Shown here piece by piece: positions 3,425 through 49,149 of a stretch of 64,000 bases of DNA. Location: the UHGV virus genome UHGV-1375844. One strand, 5' to 3'. The notes beneath the pieces were generated by a model, which saw only the letters and a list, made by a program, of their open reading frames with translations, was not told the origin of the DNA and searched no databases. The first letter of the stretch is position 1. Each line of letters begins with the position of its first letter. A program made the position numbers and the translations under genes. This DNA is from a virus.

Positions 3425-4540
3425 CTACACGAGAGCTTTGATGCCAAGCACCTTGCTTTGCAGTTCAAGCTGTCTTGTGTAGGGTTTCGCACGATAATAG
3501 GCTTTGAGGATTTGCTCTGGCGTCGCGTCGCCCGGGTCAAGTCCTTCCTCTCCTAAGCAGGCGACTTTAACGTTGATGCCCAGACTGGCGAGTCGTCTGG
3601 CCGCCGACATCGTGTTGCGGATCGCTTGCTTCTCGCTATCCCACATCATAATGACGTTTCGCAGACCACGGGCCTTCAGTGTCAGGAACGCGCCCAGCTG
3701 GTCTTCTGCATCTTCCGTTGTATTTCCGGATAAGTGCATCCCGAACGTACCTATTGGCTCGACGTACTCTCGCAACGTCTCTTCTTCGAATATGGCGCGC
3801 TTAACCCCCATGACATCAAACGCACCTTCACACACGACGACCGTCTGCTTTCCGACCGCGTTATGGCCGTTGTAGAGAAACTTTCCGGAGGCTGGCAGCT
3901 GCATGGGGAAAAGGTAGCGACGTTCTGCTGTGCCGGTGACATCACGCCCCTGGAATGTCTTCATGACACCATCCAGATCGTAAACCGGTATGAGAATGCG
4001 CATGTCAAACACCTGCCCCTTCACCTGGTCGGTGTAGGGATCGACATACGCGTGCTTGCCTTCCACGCAATAACGAAGGTCAAAGTATCTGGCCATTTCC
4101 GGCGTTATGAGACGCTTAACGAGATAATCAGGAAGTCGCCCATCGATAGGCAGTTCATAGTGGCGCGGAAGAGCAACTGGCCCCTCAAGCTCAACACCAC
4201 TGGATAACACCACTTCTTCTTTCTTCGGCGCCCACCCCTGCGAGATTAAGGCATTCTGAACGTATGCCTCGAAATCCCGGCGTGATTTGCCACTGTAGTG
4301 CTTGAGAAAAACCAGCTTGTTAAACTGAATCTCTTCGGGGTGATCGCCCGCAAAACATTTACCTACGCCATGAGAGAGGTTGAAATACACTTTCCAGTTT
4401 GAGCTGCCGCATACCGGACACTCTTTGATGTTAATTTCTCGTCCGCGCGTACTCACTCCGCCGCGACGATAGATAACGCCTTCAGTATCGAGCCATTGTT
4501 CAAAATCCAGCTCGGTCAGTAACTCTTTCAGGTCGCTCAC
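3425..4540 (-). CDS. DNA primase (zinc-ribbon + TOPRIM)
   Basis: CPVCGSSNW...GKCFAGDH zinc ribbon; TOPRIM-like VVVCEGAFDVMG and MMWDSEKQ. Confidence 0.75.
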   Translation of the reverse strand: MSDLKELLTELDFEQWLDTEGVIYRRGGVSTRGREINIKECPVCGSSNWKVYFNLSHGVGKCFAGDHPEEIQFNKLVFLKHYSGKSRRDFEAYVQNALISQGWAPKKEEVVLSSGVELEGPVALPRHYELPIDGRLPDYLVKRLITPEMARYFDLRYCVEGKHAYVDPYTDQVKGQVFDMRILIPVYDLDGVMKTFQGRDVTGTAERRYLFPMQLPASGKFLYNGHNAVGKQTVVVCEGAFDVMGVKRAIFEEETLREYVEPIGTFGMHLSGNTTEDAEDQLGAFLTLKARGLRNVIMMWDSEKQAIRNTMSAARRLASLGINVKVACLGEEGLDPGDATPEQILKAYYRAKPYTRQLELQSKVLGIKALV

Positions 4541-4690: not shown

Positions 4691-6031
4691 TTATAAAACA
4701 TCCATGATTCTTTCGATAAACCGCATTTGTTCCAGGTTCTGTTTGACACGGATGCTCACCCCGCCCTTCTGGTTACGTGAACCAGCAAAGTAGAGTCTTG
4801 CCTCGCCTTTTGCTTCTTCCTCTTCCGTTTTGTTGATAGTGATGACCAGGTCAGCGATACGCACCTTCTCGATGTTGTCTGCTGCGTGCATCATGGTCGC
4901 CACTTCCGATGCCCCACCTTCCCTGTTTGTTTGGGATGCGGTGATGCCGGCAACGTTGTGCTTGTCGTACAGCGCACGAAGATCGGTGTAAATGCTTCGT
5001 ATGTTTGCCCGGTCATCACGGAGGTCGTAGCTCGGCCGCATCAGATCGGCATAATCGACAACCACCATATCCGGGATCATGCCATTTGCCTTCATGCCAC
5101 CCAGCATACGGTCAAGATCTGCAGGCGATACGCTTCCGGATGGCCGCTCAACAATCCACAAGCTCCCAACCCCTTTCGTCGCCCCCAGCTCCGCCAGTTT
5201 GCGGTGGACGTCGTCGCGGCGCTCCACCAGCTTGGACATTTCCGTCTCGGACAGACGGGCGTCGAAACGGTCTGACAGAATAGAGGTGTGTACTTCCAGC
5301 GACAGATACAGGACGTTGTAACCGGCAAGCGTGGCGTTGACAGAGAACTCACCCATCGCCGTCGATTTACCAGACTTCGCGAAGCCCATGAACAGCACCA
5401 TTTCACGCTTGGCCCAGCCTTTCTGGTAAAGCAGTTTATCGAGCAGGGGGAGACCCGTTGTGATGCTGTTTGGCACGTAATCGTCAGATGCCTCGTACTC
5501 ACGCGTCTTGTAACGCTCTGCTGACTCAGAGAAGTAATCGTAGATGCCGGTCGCTTCGTTAGAGCCGATTTGCTGGACTTTGGCCATGATTGCCATCGCG
5601 CCCTGGAAATCGCCCTTCTCCTTCATCTCAGCCGCTTTGATTAGCGCGTCGTCGAACGCCACGCTTTTGGCGAACGTCGCGACCTGGTCGACCATGTACG
5701 CCGTGTCTGACAGCTTCTCAGCGAGAATCCGCTTAAACGCCTCAACAACATCGGGGAACAGCTCTTCGCGGATCGTCTTATCGCGTTTGGCGCGTTTGAG
5801 CATGTCGAGGATGGCCGACGACGAAGGTGCGCTTTTGTACATTCTGTAATAGCCAGACACCATATTCACCAGCAGGGCATTGGCCGCGTTGGAGAACTGG
5901 TTAGGTGCAACCAAATCGCCTGCACGAGTCAGAAACTCATGGTCGCGACAGAAATAGGCTGCGAGCCGGTTCTGGAAGTCGTCATCGAACTCTTCTGACA
6001 ACCCTCGTCCTGTGTGGCAAAGTTCGGTCAT
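4691..6031 (-). CDS. DnaB-like replicative DNA helicase
   Basis: Walker A GFAKSGKST, Walker B-like VVVDYADLM, RecA-type C-terminal domain, 446 aa. Confidence 0.75.
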   Translation of the reverse strand: MTELCHTGRGLSEEFDDDFQNRLAAYFCRDHEFLTRAGDLVAPNQFSNAANALLVNMVSGYYRMYKSAPSSSAILDMLKRAKRDKTIREELFPDVVEAFKRILAEKLSDTAYMVDQVATFAKSVAFDDALIKAAEMKEKGDFQGAMAIMAKVQQIGSNEATGIYDYFSESAERYKTREYEASDDYVPNSITTGLPLLDKLLYQKGWAKREMVLFMGFAKSGKSTAMGEFSVNATLAGYNVLYLSLEVHTSILSDRFDARLSETEMSKLVERRDDVHRKLAELGATKGVGSLWIVERPSGSVSPADLDRMLGGMKANGMIPDMVVVDYADLMRPSYDLRDDRANIRSIYTDLRALYDKHNVAGITASQTNREGGASEVATMMHAADNIEKVRIADLVITINKTEEEEAKGEARLYFAGSRNQKGGVSIRVKQNLEQMRFIERIMDVL

Positions 6032-6050
6032 GTGCTTTCCTTTAGTTCTT

Positions 6051-6066
6051 AAACAAATTGTTTTCT
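6051..6066. promoter_or_regulatory. motif B core copy
   Basis: AAACAAATTGTTTTCT about 20 nt upstream of helicase ATG. Confidence 0.45.
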
Positions 6067-6091
6067 AATGCTAAAAAAGCCAGATAGGGGA

Positions 6092-6817
6092 TCAACAGAA
6101 ACGCCGCGCTTCTTCCAGCTCTTCCGGAAAGTGGGCGTAGATAACTCGCTCAGGCACAACTTCCATGAGCCAGATGGCAGAAAAAATTATGCGTATGCGC
6201 TTATCCCGGGTGATGCCACGTAAACGCTCCAGAACCCACTCAAAATAGCTTTCCTGAATCGGGTCGTGCTGCATGTCTCCCATATGCTTAAAACTCACCA
6301 GAGAGTCATCCAGACGGGTTACAGCGCGTTTAGCTAACTTCTCTTCGAATATCTCGATTAGCTCTGGCTGCCAGAGATGTTGTGGGCGAGGTAATTTGTC
6401 CCACAACCGGCGTGCAGCTGCGGAGAGAACGGTGGAGATGAAGTAGTCATAAGAGCAGCAATAACGATCTGCGAACTGCCTGGCTTTCCAGAGAGAAGTC
6501 TTATTGGCTGTGGATAGCTCCTGATATGGCAAACGCTTCAGGCCAGTTGTAAACGGTGCTGTCTCGAAGTGTTCACGTCCATGCGACAGCATGATGTAGG
6601 AGTACTGCCGCTTGTATGCTTCGGTGAACAGACATGTCGCCATTAGCGGGTGCATATCGCGGTAGTCGAACCACTTGGAGTCATACAACTCGGCCTCATC
6701 CTTACAGCGCGAAAGACCGATGTTTTCGGCCACCCACTTGTCCATGACAGCGGTGTCCCACTCCTTCATGAAGGCGTACTGGTCGTTGTCGATAGTGTTG
6801 AAGAAAATCTGGCTCAT
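6092..6817 (-). CDS. hypothetical protein (241 aa)
   Basis: ORF adjacent to helicase; no recognisable motif. Confidence 0.55.
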   Translation of the reverse strand: MSQIFFNTIDNDQYAFMKEWDTAVMDKWVAENIGLSRCKDEAELYDSKWFDYRDMHPLMATCLFTEAYKRQYSYIMLSHGREHFETAPFTTGLKRLPYQELSTANKTSLWKARQFADRYCCSYDYFISTVLSAAARRLWDKLPRPQHLWQPELIEIFEEKLAKRAVTRLDDSLVSFKHMGDMQHDPIQESYFEWVLERLRGITRDKRIRIIFSAIWLMEVVPERVIYAHFPEELEEARRFC

Positions 6818-6831
6818 GTGATCCGCTATGG

Positions 6832-6850
6832 TAGGTAGTTACTTACTTAT
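6832..6850. promoter_or_regulatory. motif A palindrome copy
   Basis: TAGGTAGTTACTTACTTAT immediately upstream of ATG at 6817. Confidence 0.45.
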
Positions 6851-6936
6851 CAAAGTGAGCGAATCATAACGACTGGAGACAGCTTTTGGAAGTGGCAACT
6901 GAAGGGAATGTGTCTGGGAAGCTCGTTGTGAAAAGA

Positions 6937-6990
6937 CCTGCTTCCGTATAAATAATAATAAGTAACTTAGTATTTATATACAGAAGCAGG
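6937..6990. repeat. long inverted repeat H1 (18-20 bp arms)
   Basis: CCTGCTTCCGTATAAATA ... TATTTATATACAGAAGCAGG; loop carries a motif-A-like palindrome; near-identical copy at 40995..41049. Confidence 0.7.
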
Positions 6991-7006
6991 TTATAAAATC
7001 CTTTAT

Positions 7007-7417
7007 CTATTTTTCGATAACTCTTTGTTCAACTTCTTGCATCTGCTTTTCAGTGAGACTAGAAATGTGTTGATTCAGCAACAGATTGCGGTAGAAACTT
7101 TTTTGAGCCTCCGATAAATCCTGTCGCTTATCAATGTTTCTCAAAGCATTGCCGTAACTCTCGCTGATCGCATCACCATTGAATGCCTCAATAATGGTTT
7201 TCACATTCATAGCCAAGACGCCAAAGATAAAACAACCAGTGTTGTATACCCAGTCTACAACAAACCCTTTGGCGTACAAGAAAGGGGTTAAAATGTGAAG
7301 AATAACCCAAAGCAAAGCGCCAATTATTATTCCAAAAGCAGTTCTAAGCGGATAGCCCAAAAACAGAATATCTATTGCCCGATTTAAATTCCGACTAAAG
7401 AAATCATGATCTGGCAT
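7007..7417 (-). CDS. membrane protein (136 aa), AT-rich gene
   Basis: Hydrophobic helices (ILFLGYPLRTAFGIIIGALLWVILHILTPFLY); visibly AT-rich coding sequence. Confidence 0.5.
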   Translation of the reverse strand: MPDHDFFSRNLNRAIDILFLGYPLRTAFGIIIGALLWVILHILTPFLYAKGFVVDWVYNTGCFIFGVLAMNVKTIIEAFNGDAISESYGNALRNIDKRQDLSEAQKSFYRNLLLNQHISSLTEKQMQEVEQRVIEK

Positions 7418-8048
7418 CTAAAACCCCCTTTCCCAATTCTTCCCCTGGAATTTCTTCCGAGGCAGGGGTATTAAATATTTTACGCCTTCTGCCGCTTCCA
7501 CCATCATCGATCTTGTCGATATTATTTTCGATGAACTTTAAAAGCTGTATAGCCTCTGTACTATTGTTGCCGTAAAACCCTTTGGAAATACGATATGTCA
7601 GAACGCGCTCTTTCAGCTCAAGTAAAACAAAGACAACAATCCCGATAATAGTTACAATGGGGCTAAAGCCCCAAAAGTAACCCATTGAAGCACCAAGAAA
7701 AATCATCAGCACCGATAAAAACTTAACCTTAAGGAAGGTTTTTTTCTCATATAAAAGATAAAGCTCGGAAATAGTTTTCCTTTTCAAAAACTCTTGCTCT
7801 TTCTTTAAATTGTCCTCATGTTTTGCTTTTATCTCTTGTAATTTTATTCTGTACTCTTCTGATTTTATATAACTCAATGTATTACGATACAAGAAACTAC
7901 ATACCATACCTATCATTGAGCCAATAACAGAAATGACACCTTGGTTTGAAATTCCCAACAACCCCATAACCTTTCCAAAGATCACGGCGGCTATAATGGC
8001 TAACATTAGACCTACGAACCATCCGAAATGTCTATTCAGGAATTTCAT
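7404..8048 (-). CDS. membrane protein (214 aa), AT-rich gene
   Basis: N-terminal TM helices, lysine-rich coiled middle, second TM block; AT-rich; overlaps next gene by 14 nt. Confidence 0.5.
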   Translation of the reverse strand: MKFLNRHFGWFVGLMLAIIAAVIFGKVMGLLGISNQGVISVIGSMIGMVCSFLYRNTLSYIKSEEYRIKLQEIKAKHEDNLKKEQEFLKRKTISELYLLYEKKTFLKVKFLSVLMIFLGASMGYFWGFSPIVTIIGIVVFVLLELKERVLTYRISKGFYGNNSTEAIQLLKFIENNIDKIDDGGSGRRRKIFNTPASEEIPGEELGKGVLDARS

Positions 8049-8052
8049 TATA

Positions 8053-8412
8053 TTAGCCTTTCTTCATCAGCTCGCGCTTGATCTCGTCTGTGCGCATCGT
8101 GACGTCAGCAGCGGTGATCGCCTCGTTCAGTTTCACAATGTCCTCGATTTCCTGCGGCGACTTCTCTGCCAGATGGTAAATGGCTGCACGAATCACGTCA
8201 GAACGGGTGAACTTCTCAAAGCGAGGGATGAATTTCATCATCTCCAGCAGATCGAAGTATTCGTCCTCCAGCGACATGGTACGGCTCTTTATTTTCTCTT
8301 TCCCACGAGTCGGGCGGCCCTGTGGTCTGACTGGCTGGCGCAACGGCGTGCTGTTTTTGGCCGGAGCATCCGGTTCTTTGCGCTTGGCAAGGTCTCCCAT
8401 CTTCATGGACAT
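8053..8412 (-). CDS. ParG-like ribbon-helix-helix partition protein (putative centromere-binding)
   Basis: Basic disordered N-terminus then RHH-like segment (KSRTMSL / EDEYFDLLEMM / RSDVIRAAIYHLAE); immediately downstream of ParA-like gene. Confidence 0.5.
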   Translation of the reverse strand: MSMKMGDLAKRKEPDAPAKNSTPLRQPVRPQGRPTRGKEKIKSRTMSLEDEYFDLLEMMKFIPRFEKFTRSDVIRAAIYHLAEKSPQEIEDIVKLNEAITAADVTMRTDEIKRELMKKG

Positions 8413-9077
8413 TACTCTTCCTCCAGACTCAAGATATAATCAACAAACTGTTCAAACTCGGCTTCTGCCTTCTTGTCGCGTTCGGCGCCAGTCATTTCAA
8501 AGATAGAGCGACCAGCCTCTTCTGCATCATCGTAAACGTTACGGTTGTACAAATTGACCGGTGCAGCTTCGATACCAAACGTCTCAACGATTTCTTTGGC
8601 GGCCAGAATACGCGACACCTGGGAAGGTAGTGACGGGCACTGGTTGATAACGGCACGTATTTTCACCTTCTCGTTCACATTGCGTACATTGTCGATAATC
8701 GGGTCGATGTCGCGCAGCGATTTCAGGTCACGACGTTTAGGGCGCAGCGGTATGACGATAACATCAGCCATCAGCATAGCTTGTCGCTGGATTTCGGAGT
8801 CGAAGCCCCCTGCGTCTACAACCACGTAATCGAAGCGCCCCTGAAGCGATTTGAGATGCTTAACGACGTCTTCCTGAACGTAAGCGAAAGGAATGAGATC
8901 GAGATCTTCATTCTGTCGACGGTCTTCGCACCAGCTGGTAGTGGTGCGCTGGATGTCGATGTCGGTAACTTGGATTTTCTTTTTCTTTTTGACTTTCAGG
9001 CAAACCGCTATTTGCTGGGCAACGGTCGATTTACCCGGGCCACCCTTCGTGCCGCCAACCACAATGATCCTAGTCAT
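8412..9077 (-). CDS. ParA/ParF-family partition ATPase
   Basis: Deviant Walker A GGTKGGPGKST, 221 aa. Confidence 0.8.
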   Translation of the reverse strand: MTRIIVVGGTKGGPGKSTVAQQIAVCLKVKKKKKIQVTDIDIQRTTTSWCEDRRQNEDLDLIPFAYVQEDVVKHLKSLQGRFDYVVVDAGGFDSEIQRQAMLMADVIVIPLRPKRRDLKSLRDIDPIIDNVRNVNEKVKIRAVINQCPSLPSQVSRILAAKEIVETFGIEAAPVNLYNRNVYDDAEEAGRSIFEMTGAERDKKAEAEFEQFVDYILSLEEE

Positions 9078-9111
9078 TGAATAGTTCCCTTTGCGTGAAT
9101 TATTGTCGTAT

Positions 9112-9130
9112 GAAACAACTTGTTTTCTTA
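9112..9130. promoter_or_regulatory. motif B copy upstream of ParA-like gene
   Basis: GAAACAACTTGTTTTCTTA followed by TATGCGATAT. Confidence 0.45.
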
Positions 9131-9272
9131 TATGCGATATAGCCTAAATGCCTACGGCTGCGGTGTAAAGGTGAAATGGTAGGTATTATCGAGATAGAGA
9201 GGGTCTTGAGATTAAGAATGAGAAGAGGTAAACAACTTTTGGCGAGAAGGCGGCACATAGCCGCCAGACTGT

Positions 9273-10022
9273 TTATTTAGTGTATAGGCCGACAGGTGCT
9301 CTTGAGCAACGAGAGATGATTAGAACAATGAACTTCTGTACATTGACCTGAACTTTGTTAGGCAGCCATGAACTGAGTTCGGGATCGAGCAGTAACCCAC
9401 GATTCCAAGGTAAAAAACCCGTGTTCTTGCCCATGCCGTATTCACCCAGCACGTCCTCGAACGTTTCTGTTTTGGCATTGTATATACGCACATCGCCGGT
9501 ACGCATGAGAGGGCCAGCCCAGATCTTAGCGCCAGGAATGGTTTGTTTATCGTCGCAGACTAAATGCTCGTACCAATGAAGAAGGAAAAGATAGGTACGG
9601 TGACACAATCCTCGCTGACGAAGCGCTCTGACGGTTTCGACCCCTGCTACCTGGTAACAGTCAATCTCGTTGCCGTCTTCAATAAAACTATATCCACGCA
9701 GAGCTATCCTGCCGGCGATCGTGTTTTTGCTTTCGTCCAGCAGTCCGGACTGGAGCGCCTCTTTGATGATCTCTTCTTCAGGGGCATCTTCATCAGCTCG
9801 ATCTAAGATAAATTCACTCAGGTCGCCCTGGTCGTGCGCGCCGACTCGCTCCATAGAGACATACAGGCAAATGTCATCTTCTGGCTCGATGATTTCAATT
9901 TCTGAGATTTTATAGAGGGAGGCTTCGTTGATGAGAAAGCCAAAACGAGCAACACGAGTCTCCCCTTGATGAGGAAACTCGCTTAGATCTTTTGAATATG
10001 CGGTATCTAGTGTAGGAGCCAT
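9273..10022 (-). CDS. hypothetical protein (249 aa)
   Basis: Long ORF; no recognisable motif. Confidence 0.5.
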   Translation of the reverse strand: MAPTLDTAYSKDLSEFPHQGETRVARFGFLINEASLYKISEIEIIEPEDDICLYVSMERVGAHDQGDLSEFILDRADEDAPEEEIIKEALQSGLLDESKNTIAGRIALRGYSFIEDGNEIDCYQVAGVETVRALRQRGLCHRTYLFLLHWYEHLVCDDKQTIPGAKIWAGPLMRTGDVRIYNAKTETFEDVLGEYGMGKNTGFLPWNRGLLLDPELSSWLPNKVQVNVQKFIVLIISRCSRAPVGLYTK

Positions 10023-10390
10023 CTTGTAGCAGAGTCATCAGCCTTAACCGTACTGACAATGCTACCATGATTACGTAAGAAGCGGCGAATAGAATGTTCA
10101 ATAACCTCCGAAAAAGCCTCGATAAAACGAGACAGCTCAGGGTACTGTTTGGCTGGCTTCACTACAAAACGAACACGACCATTCAGGTAAATTGCTTCAG
10201 CCAACGGTTTCACGCTTGCACCGGCGCGCTCGACATCGTCTTTAAAGGTAACGATGAAGCGTGAGTCTTCAGGTTCAATAGCGTCGTTATTGAGCTTACG
10301 TACTTCGAGCTTGTGCTGATGCAGCACATGAGTCTCGATAATACTCGTGCAATCGCGAATAGTTTGTATAGAACGTTTCTCGTTCAGCAT
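10007..10390 (-). CDS. hypothetical protein (127 aa)
   Basis: ORF overlapping downstream gene by 16 nt. Confidence 0.45.
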   Translation of the reverse strand: MLNEKRSIQTIRDCTSIIETHVLHQHKLEVRKLNNDAIEPEDSRFIVTFKDDVERAGASVKPLAEAIYLNGRVRFVVKPAKQYPELSRFIEAFSEVIEHSIRRFLRNHGSIVSTVKADDSATRWLLH

Positions 10391-11033: not shown

Positions 11034-11726
11034 TCAGACGATTCCTTTCTGATGCTTTCTGACCTGCGACCAGGCAATGAAGCCGGCCACGACGATAGTT
11101 GCGATCCCGAAGACGATGCGGATCGTGTCACCGCTGGTAATGTGGCCCTGTGCCTTGTCCATTGCCACCGATACCTGTGGCATGACATCGGCCAGCTGCG
11201 CCAGGCCAATACCTGCCGTAACGGTCGCACCGGCAGTCTCTTTGGTAACGGGAACAGCTTTTACAGTCTTTACCGGTTTGACAATGCCGGCACGTCGCAG
11301 ACCTTCTTCGATAAGCTCGGATGCATACCAGGTATTTGGTGTTTTCAGCGGACCTCGACCATTTTCGTGTCTGATGATCGCCTCTACCAGCGGTCTTAGG
11401 GTCTCGTAGTCATGTAAATCGATCACCATGTCCGGCGTGACACCAACAGCTTTGGCCACCTCATTCACGTAAGCCACAGTGTTGTTCTCATGTGGAGGCG
11501 CCCAGCGCTCAATAACTTCGCGGATCGTGTCGATGCTTGAGCCGTCTTTGGCTCGACGTTTGTCATGGTAGGTGATGAGCGTAACTGCCAATGCGCGAAT
11601 CCCCCATACGGGATCTTTGAAAGTGCAGAAGCGCGGTTCTGAAGGGTTGTCGACTAAGCCCTGCCACGGCGAACCTTTATCAAGATTGCCAGGGTTGTTG
11701 TTGCGAATACCTCTTGGAGTTTTCAT
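11034..11726 (-). CDS. putative cell-wall hydrolase / endolysin (by position), C-terminal TM helix
   Basis: 230 aa between holin-like gene and spanins; RNNNPGN motif near N-terminus; catalytic family not identified. Confidence 0.4.
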   Translation of the reverse strand: MKTPRGIRNNNPGNLDKGSPWQGLVDNPSEPRFCTFKDPVWGIRALAVTLITYHDKRRAKDGSSIDTIREVIERWAPPHENNTVAYVNEVAKAVGVTPDMVIDLHDYETLRPLVEAIIRHENGRGPLKTPNTWYASELIEEGLRRAGIVKPVKTVKAVPVTKETAGATVTAGIGLAQLADVMPQVSVAMDKAQGHITSGDTIRIVFGIATIVVAGFIAWSQVRKHQKGIV

Positions 11727-14409: not shown

Positions 14410-14967
14410 TTAAATTTTAGTTACGGCAATCGTTTTGCCATTTTGATTGTAAAGCCAGCCTCCTGCTGTACTCGCTCTATAATGCCTGGTGTTATATGCA
14501 AAGTGGCTCGGAGTGAAGGTAAAATTAGTTCCACCAAAAGAAAGCGTGAAATTTTGGTTCGGCCCATTAGTTAAACCTATATACATGGTTGTCGCATTTT
14601 GAACCTGGGAAACATGCGTAATAGCACACCCCAATAATGTTCCACTAACAGAGCCTGTTGCGTTAATCGAGAGCGGTTGTTGCGCACCGCTTACGACTGT
14701 TGCAGCAATGGCTCCTGTTTGAACGGAGTTATTTGAAAAACCACCATACGAGGATGTCCCTTGAATGAATTGACCGTTCGAAATCTGCGCTCTGAAAGCG
14801 TATGTGTTCCGGCCAACCACCACCGTGAAGTCCTGCATCGCTTTTCCAACCAGAGAACTCATCCAAAACGGAGTGCCAACCTTAACTTTGGAGCCAGCGG
14901 CAGACATCCACCGCTGGCCAGTAGTTGATACGGCTGACGACCCGACCCATCCTGAGCCAATCGCCAT
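14410..14967 (-). CDS. putative receptor-binding / tail fibre protein sharing N-terminal domain with 12152..12976
   Basis: MAIGSGWVGSSAVSTTGQRWMSAAG...VGTPFWM closely matches N-terminus of the Gly-rich protein. Confidence 0.5.
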   Translation of the reverse strand: MAIGSGWVGSSAVSTTGQRWMSAAGSKVKVGTPFWMSSLVGKAMQDFTVVVGRNTYAFRAQISNGQFIQGTSSYGGFSNNSVQTGAIAATVVSGAQQPLSINATGSVSGTLLGCAITHVSQVQNATTMYIGLTNGPNQNFTLSFGGTNFTFTPSHFAYNTRHYRASTAGGWLYNQNGKTIAVTKI

Positions 14968-46889: not shown

Positions 46890-47417
46890 ATGACGAACAT
46901 AACTGACATCACCTACGGTATACCTGCAGAAGTCTGGCCGCGGGATTATTCTAACGTCGAGAAGGCACTCATGTTCTGGCGTAAATCCCTCATTCCTGTA
47001 AGGGTCACGATGGAGGATGGTCAGGTGTTCTGCATGTATGTGCAGGGTCTCATGTCATCCCGCAATAAGGTTGATCTTTGCTCTGCCCCGTTCGACAAAG
47101 AAAATCGTATAAGGCTCCCACTTGAGCGGATCAGCACGATTGAGTCGGGTGTGACAGAAAGTATTGGACACGACTTCAAGGGGCGAATCACGATTAACCC
47201 CGAATATGTTGATAATCGGCCATCTCGCCGGGACTTCTTCAAAATCTGTCGGCAGGCTCATGCGTCTCAGAAGTCTATAAGGGTGTACATGGCGGATGGC
47301 CGTGAAATTGAAGGTGTGTCATTAGGCGTTGACGCTTGCCAGGTCACGATCGGCATTGGTGAAGGTCGCAAGATGGTGGTCTTGTTCGATTGGGTCGAAA
47401 GGATTATACCGTTTTAA
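46890..47417 (+). CDS. hypothetical protein (175 aa)
   Basis: ORF directly after lipoprotein gene. Confidence 0.5.
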   Translation: MTNITDITYGIPAEVWPRDYSNVEKALMFWRKSLIPVRVTMEDGQVFCMYVQGLMSSRNKVDLCSAPFDKENRIRLPLERISTIESGVTESIGHDFKGRITINPEYVDNRPSRRDFFKICRQAHASQKSIRVYMADGREIEGVSLGVDACQVTIGIGEGRKMVVLFDWVERIIPF

Positions 47418-47430
47418 ATCTATAAGGGTA

Positions 47431-47460
47431 ATAACCGGCTAAGTCCGGTTATTATTTTAT
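47431..47460 (+). terminator. intrinsic terminator
   Basis: AATAACCGG-loop-CCGGTTATT followed by ATTTTATGG. Confidence 0.55.
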
Positions 47461-47632
47461 GGGTCACTTCTTCACTATATATTCCTTACAGCCAATTCCC
47501 GCCAATAATATATAAGGGCAATCTCACAATTGCGTTATTTATTTAGGGAACACCTTCAAGAAAAACGGATTTATTTCTAAGACTTTGATTTTTATTGAAT
47601 AAAATTTTTTCCTGCTACCTTACAAAAAATAC

Positions 47633-47660
47633 TTGCTTTTAAAATTCATATAGCGATAAT
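47633..47660 (+). promoter_or_regulatory. sigma70-like promoter
   Basis: TTGCTT, 16-nt spacer, GATAAT; in AT-rich UP-like region about 80 nt upstream of ATG 47739. Confidence 0.5.
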
Positions 47661-47738
47661 TACACACATCGAAAGCGAACACGCTAACGATAAATAAAAA
47701 ACAAATTAATTTTCAATATTACATAAGGATTAAATATT

Positions 47739-48386
47739 ATGTCTAACGTTATCTCTAAAAAAGCTATCATCGACGCTGCTGTAGTTATCACTGAAGAGCT
47801 TCAGATCAAAGCAAATGAAGCAAGCCAGACACGCGAACAACGCGCTAAAAATGGAACTGCTACCAAAGCAGATAAAGCTAACGAGCTTGCAGCCACTACT
47901 AAACTTGCATACTTCACTAACAACGTATTAAACGCGCTTAAAGATGAAAAATTAGCTGGTGTCTTTTACTACGCGATTAAAGCCAGCAAGCAAGATCCAG
48001 AAGTATTTTTCCGTGAAGCGATGACTAATAGCTACTCTCTCGAAAAGCTGGTTTATCTGGTGAAGTCTATTAAGTCTGGCAAATGTGTTTATTCAGTCGC
48101 TGATATGTCAGGATCTCGCGTATTCGCATTAATCGAAATGATTAATGATGAAATGGAAACTTTTACTAATGGCGCTGTATTCGATTTAATGAATGAAGCT
48201 AAAAAAGCATGTGAGATTAAATTAGACGCTGGCTACACTCAAGCCAATCAGCTTATCAATTTGTGTGAACGTCTGGGACTGGTCGAGAAGATCAAAGGAA
48301 TGGGCGCTGCTAAAAACGGATCTCAGCAATATCGCTTTATCAAGAATGATTTTTATAACTATCTGGCTGAAGCGTTCAAAGCGTAA
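47739..48386 (+). CDS. hypothetical protein (215 aa), AT-rich cassette gene
   Basis: Own promoter and terminator; AT-rich codon usage. Confidence 0.55.
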   Translation: MSNVISKKAIIDAAVVITEELQIKANEASQTREQRAKNGTATKADKANELAATTKLAYFTNNVLNALKDEKLAGVFYYAIKASKQDPEVFFREAMTNSYSLEKLVYLVKSIKSGKCVYSVADMSGSRVFALIEMINDEMETFTNGAVFDLMNEAKKACEIKLDAGYTQANQLINLCERLGLVEKIKGMGAAKNGSQQYRFIKNDFYNYLAEAFKA

Positions 48387-48397
48387 TTAGATGGATA

Positions 48398-48424
48398 TAG
48401 CGCCCACTATGGGCGCTAGTTTTA
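48398..48424 (+). terminator. intrinsic terminator
   Basis: AGCGCCCACTATGGGCGCT hairpin plus GTTTTA. Confidence 0.5.
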
Positions 48425-48436
48425 AGGATAAAAATC

Positions 48437-48640
48437 ATGACAAGCTATGACCAGATCCTCGCGGAGTATCGCGCAAAATATCGCGCTTATAAACTTGAAT
48501 TAATCGACGATCTAAAAGCGCAACGCGATAAACTAAATTTTACTTTTGCTGATTTGCTTAACAGTAAAAGAGACTGTAAACGCAAGCGTGAATATTTGCG
48601 CTTGTCTGAAATGATCGGAAAACTGCAAAACAGCATTTAA
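48437..48640 (+). CDS. hypothetical small protein (67 aa)
   Basis: ORF between two copies of the same terminator hairpin. Confidence 0.45.
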   Translation: MTSYDQILAEYRAKYRAYKLELIDDLKAQRDKLNFTFADLLNSKRDCKRKREYLRLSEMIGKLQNSI

Positions 48641-48643
48641 ACA

Positions 48644-48670
48644 AAAGCGCCCACTATGGGCGCTTTTTTC
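48644..48670 (+). terminator. intrinsic terminator (second copy of GCGCCCACTATGGGCGC hairpin)
   Basis: Hairpin followed by TTTTTTCG. Confidence 0.65.
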
Positions 48671-49149
48671 GTTTCAGGATCTCCACCATAACGCGCCAAC
48701 AATGGCGCGTTTTCTTTTGTCTGGCGTTCACTCATTCACAACAAAAATAAGCTCCATAAAAACGCCACTGCGACGCGTTTTAACGTGTGGCAATACGTAC
48801 CCATAGCTAAAACAAAAAAGCGCTCAGAATGCGAGGTGTGGCGTTTTAGTGTATGGCTTATTTTATGCTGTCGTGGGCGTGATCGTCTGGCGTTATCTGG
48901 CGACGTGATCCGCGCCATCCTTCGGGACGTGTCGGCAATAATGGCGTGATCCGTGGGCGCTCGCGTATAGTCTCCACGTTGGCGCAACGTGTACGCGCTT
49001 ACAGTCTCGTTTATTCAGTGATTCATAATCACATAGCGAAAGCTATCCGGATGGCTCAGGGGCTGAAAAGCCCACCAGCACCACCCCAGCGCCTCTGTGC
49101 ATTTTCTGGTGTGATTCTGAGCGTCTCCCGCTCGGTTTCTACATAGAGG

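Follow-up and report, generated by a model that had tools for sequence, protein, structure and literature searches.

An overlapping pair of membrane-protein genes in a cargo slot beside the partition genes of an SSU5-like phage-plasmid: a mobile cassette with a plausible defence or exclusion function

The P2 and P4 hotspots are documented reservoirs of defence systems (PMC9122126; PMC13586616), and six of eight randomly picked P4-hotspot loci of unknown function gave protection (PMC13586616). In SSU5-group phage-plasmids, PD-T4-3, PD-T7-5, PrrC, restriction-modification (RM) and AbiH systems have been reported (preprint 10.1101/2025.09.12.675607). Here we describe a locus of virus genome UHGV-1375844, of which the whole stretch analysed, 64,000 nucleotides long and called the window below, is an SSU5-like phage-plasmid; its region 6000-9200 is 83% identical to Salmonella phage SSU5. 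Directly downstream of the partition genes, two overlapping genes that we call orfA and orfB (the A-B pair) encode small proteins predicted to reside in the inner membrane. As judged from sequence comparison, the pair is a mobile two-gene cassette exchanged among temperate phages, satellites and phage-plasmids. Its family is new and unannotated; the kind of place in which it lies, a mobile-element defence hotspot, is a known one. A defence or exclusion function is plausible. The reading that we favour, whose chances we judge to be about even, is that A and B are expressed in the lysogen, where they would form an inner-membrane complex and give protection against other phages, with a leaning towards a membrane effector of the abortive-infection (Abi) type.

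As in the P2 and P4 hotspots, the site is a fixed position of a temperate element, located between conserved genes, in which AT-rich cargo, mostly anti-phage in those hotspots, is rapidly swapped (PMC9122126, PMC13586616). It differs from those hotspots in its host, an SSU5-like phage-plasmid, and in its location at the 3' end of a partition operon. When the pair is carried by P2-like prophages (IMG/VR contigs), it lies at moron sites, between the tail-completion and baseplate-V genes or adjoining ogr/D, and not in the gpA-gpQ hotspot described in PMC9122126. None of the systems named in the two studies is a membrane-protein pair without a soluble partner, unlike A-B; Crouga, Bandua, Aernus, Toga, Reve and Hailong (PMC13586616) were rejected as candidates, as all of them are described with soluble enzymatic domains.

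Other described systems resemble the pair in the build of their proteins. Rst_2TM_1TM_TIR of the P2-like phage AC1, RexAB, the transmembrane (TM) effectors of CBASS and Pycsar, and KwaA of Kiwa are, like A-B, small multi-TM proteins that are encoded by mobile elements, are thought to act at the inner membrane and have variable partners nearby. These systems, however, have a cytosolic sensor or signal enzyme, whereas A-B is self-contained in most loci and has no PADLOC match. A second group is formed by superinfection exclusion (Sie) proteins, namely SieB of P22 and lambda, SieA of P22, Imm of T4 and gp15 of HK97, which share with A-B that they are small inner-membrane proteins expressed from prophages and devoid of enzymatic domains. 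In contrast to them, A-B is scarcely exposed to the periplasm, and its conservation extends well beyond a single phage group; the other Sie families gave no match. The orthologues of orfA and orfB in SSU5 itself are gp35 and gp36 (SSU5_035, SSU5_036; phrog_22270, phrog_17322), which occupy the same slot, with amino-acid identities of 74% and 68%, and agree with the window genes in length (214 and 136 aa), in their overlap and in a low GC content (0.38). Both are annotated as hypothetical only and, unlike in the window, an extra DUF2971/PDC-S31 gene is present downstream of them. The SSU5 and RefSeq identifiers of the pair were not mentioned in the literature that we searched. The two window proteins are 100% identical to those of the 106.6-kb Salmonella enterica plasmid NZ_CP030187.1.

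The 3' end of the partition operon, between the parB-like gene and a conserved hairpin, behaves in the alignments of related elements as a hypervariable slot for cargo. The breakpoints of blastn alignments set its limits at 6992-6996 and 8050-8051. SSU5 and pJN2-26, which carry the pair plus a DUF2971 gene, align to window positions 6000-6992 and 7005-9185, with 886 bp of these elements (the DUF2971 segment) being replaced by 12 bp in the window (6993-7004); neither a DUF2971 gene nor a PD-T7-5 gene is present in the window. Phage Cyrano aligns to 6002-6996 and 8051-9184, and there a DUF2971-type gene alone takes the place of the pair. Altogether, six cargo states were observed at the slot among the relatives (Table 1). 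Although the sample is small, the alternative cargo gave PADLOC matches in four relatives, which fall in three families: PD-T4-3, which is validated, and the candidates PDC-S49 and PDC-S31. A 352-aa cargo gene and the A-B pair matched nothing in PADLOC. The alternative cargo genes are AT-rich to a varying degree (GC 0.31-0.48). The backbone neighbour of the slot, a phrog_2500 gene, was found by tblastn in 932 plasmid records, about 730 of them at an identity of at least 80%, and orfA and orfB match the same 74 PLSDB plasmids; since 74 records stand against about 730 with the backbone neighbour, the pair occupies the slot in roughly 10% of the SSU5-like relatives.

The hairpin that closes the slot is kept in eight phage-plasmids irrespective of the cargo, and homology between them starts at the same base, in the 5' arm of the hairpin. 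It has a 15-bp stem and an AT-rich, partly self-complementary loop, and is directly followed by CUUUUC. Its predicted fold has a free energy of -23.6 kcal/mol (z = -3.95), and none of 200 shuffled sequences was as stable. With a loop longer than 8 nt, it escaped a simple terminator scan. This element is the probable terminator of a par-cargo transcript, which fits with the one G·U wobble in the stem that can form only in the minus-strand RNA.

Outside the phage-plasmids, the same overlapping 214 + 136-aa pair is found in the chromosomes of Enterobacter and Klebsiella aerogenes, with orfA homologues of about 58% identity. Two settings were observed there: the cargo end of an island resembling P4 or the phage-inducible chromosomal islands (PICI), with AlpA, Bro-N, an integrase, DUF4222 and a D5-type primase, and a site beside a transposase (rve domain) of the insertion sequence (IS) family IS3. 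In these loci the pair lies directly upstream of a 374-aa PD-T7-5 gene (PADLOC E 7e-131); when E. coli genomes were searched at the nucleotide level for the PICI cassette, only PD-T7-5-like genes without the pair were recovered. In Klebsiella oxytoca, a 293 + 136-aa pair stands alone at the end of a prophage, after the tail-fibre genes, and in metagenome contigs the pair adjoins a DDE transposase. Among the GTDB representative genomes, the locus was found only in one, Buttiauxella. An Acinetobacter homologue, used as tblastn query against plasmids, matched only enterobacterial phage-plasmids. In every context the GC content of the cassette is 0.31-0.39, versus 0.47-0.56 for the backbone.

The comparison of the window with four related phage-plasmids gave ratios of nonsynonymous to synonymous substitution rates (dN/dS) of 0.09-0.12 for orfA and 0.12-0.13 for orfB, with values of 0.015-0.05 for the backbone genes. 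The synonymous divergence (dS) of the cassette was about 1.6 versus 0.4-1.3 for the flanks, and it was saturated in the two more distant comparisons. By these estimates orfA and orfB are real genes under purifying selection, and the excess of dS together with the low dN/dS points to allelic replacement by recombination with purifying selection acting on the cassette.

In some places the pair is accompanied by a third gene, namely DUF2971 in SSU5, pJN2-26, Buttiauxella and three IMG/VR contigs, or PD-T7-5 in the Enterobacter and K. aerogenes islands. It could be supposed from this order that A-B is the membrane effector half of a three-gene system, in which DUF2971 (SSU5) or PD-T7-5 (PICI-like islands) acts as the sensor and of which the window pair would be a truncated, inactive remnant; a precedent for TM proteins being coupled to a cytosolic signal generator is the Rst_2TM_1TM_TIR system, from a P2-like phage (PMC9122126). 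We consider such an arrangement highly improbable. The pair stands alone in most of its occurrences, which include the window type, the class II pairs (defined below) of Klebsiella, E. coli and Cronobacter phage-plasmids, the P2-like prophages and the metagenome loci, and it is under purifying selection there. In addition, DUF2971 and PD-T7-5 are also found alone, PD-T7-5 is catalogued as a single-gene system, and the third gene differs according to the context. The candidate role of obligate partner of DUF2971 or PD-T7-5 was likewise rejected, as the pair and each of these two genes occur without the others.

What does not vary is the association of A with B. An A-like gene immediately followed by a B-like gene was present in all 27 loci recovered from genomes and IMG/VR. 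The same arrangement recurs in four distant-branch metagenome loci, where the two genes overlap by 4 nt and the B-like gene gives E-values of 1e-11 to 2e-19 against the enterobacterial B profile; B thus comes directly after A in all 31 loci examined. When IMG/VR was searched with the B family, only contigs already recovered with A were obtained, and B was never found there without A. A word-based protein search gave 32 A clusters only, all of them enterobacterial; HMMER, with the A profile against 1.84 billion representatives, gave 752 clusters at E <= 1e-3 and 308 at E <= 1e-10, the sources of the A family including Pantoea, Citrobacter, Acinetobacter and the cable bacteria Electrothrix and Electronema. 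As far as these searches reach, A-B is a deeply conserved and obligately paired module with hundreds of distant relatives, and not a one-off insert. From the obligate adjacency and the overlap of the genes we infer that A and B form a physical complex. In a separate observation, the A-like gene of pKPHS1 (CP003223.1, K. pneumoniae HS11286; locus L004, 3242-4008) is split into ORFs (open reading frames) of 61 and 144 aa, next to an intact B-like gene, and IMG/VR relatives (L036-L038) have an intact 255-aa version; the split gene represents a frameshift, a pseudogene or a sequencing error.

Obligate pairing would also be expected from an addiction module of the toxin-antitoxin kind, in which one of the membrane proteins is the toxin and the other its neutraliser, and which stabilises the phage-plasmid after a partition failure, with or without a role in defence. 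As in type II toxin-antitoxin systems, the two genes are small and overlap (by 14 nt, in the fixed order A-B); they lie directly beside the partition genes, the slot upstream of parA holds KacT-type toxin-antitoxin modules in relatives, and some of the distant-branch metagenome loci lie among RelE-, PIN- and HigA-like genes, identities that come from sequence reading only. Against it stands the nature of the partners, since both are predicted to be integral membrane proteins, of 136-214 aa, and to our knowledge the known membrane toxins are shorter than 60 aa or have soluble antitoxins. Moreover, no toxin or antitoxin domain was detected in orfA or orfB with Pfam, NCBIfam or PADLOC, and the pair often lies in integrated prophages and in islands, for which post-segregational killing matters less. 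The split A with an intact B in pKPHS1 is also difficult to accommodate in a simple scheme in which one protein neutralises the other. On balance, we regard an addiction module as distinctly unlikely.

With regard to the locus itself, the AT-rich character of the pair was evident at each scale considered. The bin 7001-8000, with a GC content of 0.377, is the lowest among the 64 one-kb bins of the window, and orfA (0.371) and orfB (0.389) have the two lowest overall GC values among 76 long ORFs (mean 0.503, sd 0.039). The values for third codon positions (GC3) are 0.395 and 0.409, respectively, versus an ORF mean of 0.550 (sd 0.066). The edges of the AT-rich block are sharp, with GC drops at about 6850-6990 and 8000-8050. 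Because GC3 is low as well, the AT-richness is not merely an effect of hydrophobic residues, and a composition artefact of hydrophobic codons was rejected. A Shine-Dalgarno-like purine-rich run (GGA/AGG) was read 6-8 nt upstream of the ATG of each gene; the orfA ATG is separated by 4 nt from the stop codon of the 119-aa ParA partner gene, and no terminator was found between this parB-like gene and orfA.

The first-pass annotation of this DNA had described two overlapping ORFs for multi-helix membrane proteins, next to the partition genes and more AT-rich than their surroundings, and had suggested that they form a horizontally acquired accessory cassette. The layout was confirmed, with the ORFs at the coordinates of Table 1, a 14-nt overlap between the 3' end of orfA and the start of orfB, four hydrophobic segments in A and two in B, and the ParA ATPase and its 119-aa partner directly upstream of orfA; the composition agrees, as given above, and the topology prediction by hydropathy and the positive-inside rule upholds the multi-helix membrane character of both proteins. 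Horizontal acquisition is well supported by the presence of the pair in 74 versus about 730 plasmids, by the other cargo at the same site, by the P2-like, PICI-like and IS contexts, and by the cassette being more diverged than its flanks even at synonymous sites.

In the orfA protein, hydrophobic segments on the Kyte-Doolittle scale at about 10-27 and 36-54 form a predicted N-terminal TM hairpin, and those at about 107-125 and 129-145 form a second one; the two hairpins are connected by a charged helical arm (55-106) on the cytoplasmic side. The second hairpin is followed by a conserved juxtamembrane motif, YRISKGFYGNNSTEAIQLLKFIENNIDKID, at residues 152-181, and by a disordered basic/acidic tail. 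The conserved core spans residues 89-193, and what is kept is the second TM hairpin and the juxtamembrane motif; the consensus of the A family on the cytoplasmic side of the membrane is [YF]R[IV]xxGx[FY]Gx4E[AT]xx[IL][IL]xF[IL]x7DFxDxxG, and R153 and E165 are invariant in 130 representatives of the family. The N-terminal module varies between classes while the core is retained: class I, to which the window protein belongs, has the N-terminal TM hairpin and the charged helical arm, and class II proteins, of 250-260 aa, have a different N-terminus with a long coiled region. The match of orfA to phrog_22270 (E 2.2e-30) aligns only residues 67-208, to positions 106-251 of a 255-position profile, and its N-terminal module is therefore of a different class. 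The orfB protein is predicted to start with a helix in the cytoplasm, to continue with a TM hairpin (hydrophobic segments at about 26-47 and 57-72, on the same scale) and to end in a stretch of about 64 aa that is helical and again cytoplasmic. It matches phrog_17322 over its full length (E 1.1e-51; 1-136 of 136 positions). The TM hairpin carries the motifs P23-x-R25-T26-x2-G29-x3-G33 and C62-F63-x2-G66, and the B family is conserved over its whole length, including P23, R25, T26, G29, G33, D55, C62, F63 and G66, among others. Both phrogs are phage protein families whose function is unassigned (PHROG).

In both proteins, lysine and arginine residues cluster on the non-loop sides of the hydrophobic segments, which gives a predicted N-in/C-in topology with periplasmic loops of only 3-9 residues. 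The AlphaFold2 models are all-helical, with helices at the positions of the hydrophobic segments of A and B; the mean predicted local distance difference test (pLDDT) score for orfA is 60, with a predicted template modelling (pTM) score of 0.31, which is weak, and the values for orfB are moderate (75 and 0.44, respectively). The two proteins are thus predicted to be integral inner-membrane proteins with nearly nothing in the periplasm.

This topology bears on classical superinfection exclusion, by which A-B would block the entry of an incoming phage genome at the inner membrane, as T4 Imm, P22 SieA and HK97 gp15 do, and leave the cell unharmed. Small membrane proteins without an enzymatic domain, carried by temperate elements and placed for expression in the lysogen, are what would be expected of such a mechanism, and the pair does occupy moron positions in P2-like prophages. 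Exclusion was also the foremost analogy of the first-pass annotation. Nevertheless, we think exclusion of this type unlikely, given that the periplasmic loops are so short and that conservation is found mainly on the cytoplasmic side. The family is also present in satellites, in IS-flanked islands and in toxin-antitoxin islands of cable bacteria, which is unexpected for a blocker specific for a receptor or an injection process. The sole sequence link to a Sie protein is SieB (PF14163), a candidate that was rejected: the window protein gave no match, and one of 29 family members gave an E-value of 0.09 and 12.7 bits versus a cutoff of 26, which is chance level.

The searches of databases gave no other lead for either protein. 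Pfam, NCBIfam and PADLOC returned sub-threshold noise only for orfA and orfB (e.g., DUF2244 and DUF5822), with no family of PADLOC-DB 2.0 at E <= 0.1, and PADLOC also returned only noise for the PICI and class II homologues of the pair. The 130 A-family representatives gave no consistent PADLOC match, the lone one being LeoBC with an E-value of 9e-4, and Pfam detected no family common to more than three members among 29 A and 8 B proteins. Sequence-profile searches of PDB with the A and B families gave nothing under an E-value of 0.1, and Foldseek gave no match with E <1 for the orfA and orfB models against BFVD and PDB. Two further candidate roles were discarded. A role in lysis was rejected since about 90% of the SSU5-like plasmids lack the pair, Pfam gives no holin match and the putative lysis genes lie at another site; this site is marked by the gene at 11034-11726, the orthologue of which carries the annotation endolysin in both Cyrano and pJN2-26 and has Rz/Rz1-like spanin genes downstream of it. 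A membrane anchor related to partition was rejected because the pair is absent from about 90% of the relatives and is present in integrated prophages.

The absence of a defence-family match, and the fact that hotspots hold mixed cargo, would also be in line with cargo that does not act in defence, such as an orphan immunity pair against a membrane-acting bacteriocin or a contact-dependent toxin, an anti-defence factor, or a moron for membrane or stress physiology. The immunity proteins of pore-forming colicins are similar in size and topology to four-TM, N-in/C-in proteins of about 180-210 aa, and the likeness of orfA-type proteins to them is taken here as a lead only. There is, however, no Pfam match to colicin immunity or to any other family, no toxin gene lies consistently nearby in the contexts examined, and wherever neighbours in these slots could be identified, they are anti-phage genes, either validated or candidate. 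We therefore give non-defence cargo of this kind little probability.

For the protective inner-membrane complex that we favour, the following sequence of events is proposed. The orfA and orfB genes would be read through from the par operon, as part of a parA-parB-orfA-orfB unit, and the proteins would be made in the plasmid-prophage state, given the presumed read-through from parAB. The A-B complex would then protect the lysogen, from within the inner membrane, against other phages or mobile elements. In this scheme the effector core would be made up of the conserved TM hairpin of orfA and its juxtamembrane motif. The response to infection would fall to the variable N-terminal module of orfA, and orfB would serve the effector core as a partner or regulator in the membrane. 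Once activated, the complex would damage the membrane, in the manner of abortive infection, instead of blocking a specific injection machine. We lean towards this because A-B has minimal periplasmic exposure, because the conserved residues of A and B are cytoplasmic or intramembrane, because the N-terminal module of orfA is swapped like a specificity domain, and because the family spans phyla and non-phage islands, which suggests a generic target such as membrane integrity. The preference for an abortive-infection effector over an injection block is a weak one.

The first-pass annotation had also suggested superinfection exclusion, abortive infection or another host-modifying function. This suggestion gained circumstantial support from the location of the pair at defence-hotspot sites and from its validated or candidate defence neighbours; it gained none from family assignment, as no known defence, Sie or Abi family was matched. 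In favour of a protective complex, hotspot genes without an assigned function mostly turn out to be defensive, as the six of eight P4-hotspot loci indicate (PMC13586616). Several points weigh against it. Pfam, NCBIfam, PADLOC, PDB profiles and Foldseek revealed no homology to a known defence, Sie, Abi, holin or toxin family, so that the proposed function is a matter of guilt by association. Neither orfA nor orfB has an enzymatic domain or a sensor domain that could be recognised, and their AlphaFold models are weak (pLDDT 60 and 75). A simple promoter scan found no minus-strand sigma-70 consensus promoter in 6000-9400, so that it is spacing only that suggests co-transcription of the pair with parAB. 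The hotspots also hold non-defence cargo, that is, toxin-antitoxin, anti-defence and virulence genes. Finally, an effector that damages membranes would need tight control if it were expressed constitutively.

A further step would be to consider A-B as an anti-phage system that is new and self-contained, that consists solely of two small proteins of the inner membrane without a soluble sensor or enzyme, that detects infection at or through the membrane and aborts it, and that is conserved from Enterobacteriaceae to Acinetobacter and cable bacteria. We put this forward tentatively, as a possibility that is more doubtful than not. The definition of such a system by the TM hairpin and juxtamembrane consensus of A, and by PxRTxxGxxxG in B, is offered with the same reserve.

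The features of the locus are collected in Table 1.

Table 1. Features of the window around the A-B pair, and cargo found in the same slot of related elements.
Feature	Position	Strand	Description
orfA	8048..7404	minus	214 aa, ~4 TM, predicted inner-membrane protein (ORF and hydropathy)
orfB	7417..7007	minus	136 aa, 2 TM, predicted inner-membrane protein (ORF and hydropathy)
AT-rich cargo segment	6993..8050	no strand	GC ~0.37-0.39; between the parB-like stop codon and the conserved hairpin
ParA partition ATPase	9077..8412	minus	Pfam AAA_31 (E 2e-16), MipZ, CbiA, VirC1; phrog_164 ParA-like
119-aa ParA partner gene	8412..8053	minus	phrog_5111; upstream boundary of the slot
Hairpin	6991..6936	minus	inverted repeat and RNA fold; downstream boundary of the slot
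241-aa backbone gene	6817..6092	minus	phrog_2500; conserved, flanks the slot downstream
DnaB-like helicase	6031..4691	minus	downstream of the phrog_2500 gene
Primase	4540..3425	minus	downstream of the DnaB-like helicase
pLAO59 slot cargo			PD-T4-3-like GIY-YIG protein (E 1e-23)
E. coli O104:H4 plasmid slot cargo			KAP-family NTPase; matches PDC-S49
Klebsiella and Enterobacter plasmids slot cargo			352-aa gene; no family match
SSU5 and Cyrano slot cargo			DUF2971 genes; match PADLOC candidate PDC-S31 (E 2e-33 and 3e-41)

The 119-aa partner of ParA is presumed, from its position only, to be a centromere-binding protein of the ParB/ParG type. It is 90-98% identical across the relatives and shows a weak match to the aCcr1 family at residues 54-80, with an E-value of 1.4e-4 that is far under the curated cutoff. 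Its orthologue in Cyrano (L002, 3308-3667) is annotated as 'RelE/ParE putative toxin'; the window protein gave no RelE/ParE match in Pfam or NCBIfam, and this annotation is probably wrong, the position suggesting a centromere-binding partner instead. Upstream of parA, a second variable slot (9273-10390, minus strand) holds genes for a 249-aa (phrog_3307) and a 127-aa (phrog_2594) protein in the window. The same slot contains a KacT/GNAT plus DUF1778 toxin-antitoxin pair in Cyrano, pLAO59 and the O104:H4 plasmid, a 403-aa HEPN protein in Cronobacter and a helix-hairpin-helix protein in Klebsiella. On the other side, between the hairpin and the phrog_2500 gene (6818-6935, minus strand), about 120 nt are highly conserved in eight phage-plasmids, e.g., CCCTTCCGTTTCCACTTCCAAAA and GATAAGTAAGTAACTACCTA; this leader may serve the phrog_2500-dnaB-primase genes as a promoter, as an operator or as a replication-related element.

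Other features of the window were noted away from this locus. A 175-aa ORF on the plus strand (46890-47417) matches Pfam Flag1_repress, the FljA-type repressor of phase-1 flagellin, with an E-value of 2.7e-89; it is a host flagellar-phase regulator on a Salmonella phage-plasmid and hence a possible lysogenic-conversion gene. A second AT-rich patch extends over 47001-49000 (GC 0.41-0.43). The 215-aa ORF at 47739-48386 (plus strand; GC 0.395, GC3 0.370) is the third most AT-rich of the window, has no Pfam match and is probably another cargo gene. A 185-aa ORF on the minus strand (14410-14967), which adjoins the large tail-fibre genes, has the N-terminal domain Gp38_N of tail-fibre adhesins (E 1.4e-20) and is ordinary host-range machinery.

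SSU5-group phage-plasmids are common in clinical lineages of Salmonella Typhi, Shigella sonnei, Klebsiella and E. coli (10.1101/2025.09.12.675607), and the genes that they express in the plasmid state shape which phages, therapeutic ones included, infect their hosts. What is defined here is a cargo slot with precise limits, which follows the partition genes at the 3' end of their operon and ends at a conserved hairpin, together with one of its recurrent occupants, an obligate two-gene membrane module that spans phyla and has no annotation in the databases of families or of defence systems. If the pair is anti-phage, a minimal, enzyme-free membrane system would be added to the defence catalogue, and its two short conserved motifs would give a handle for finding hundreds of relatives. 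If it is not, the pair would still be a clean example of a moron cassette that shuttles between phage-plasmids, P2-like phages and satellites.

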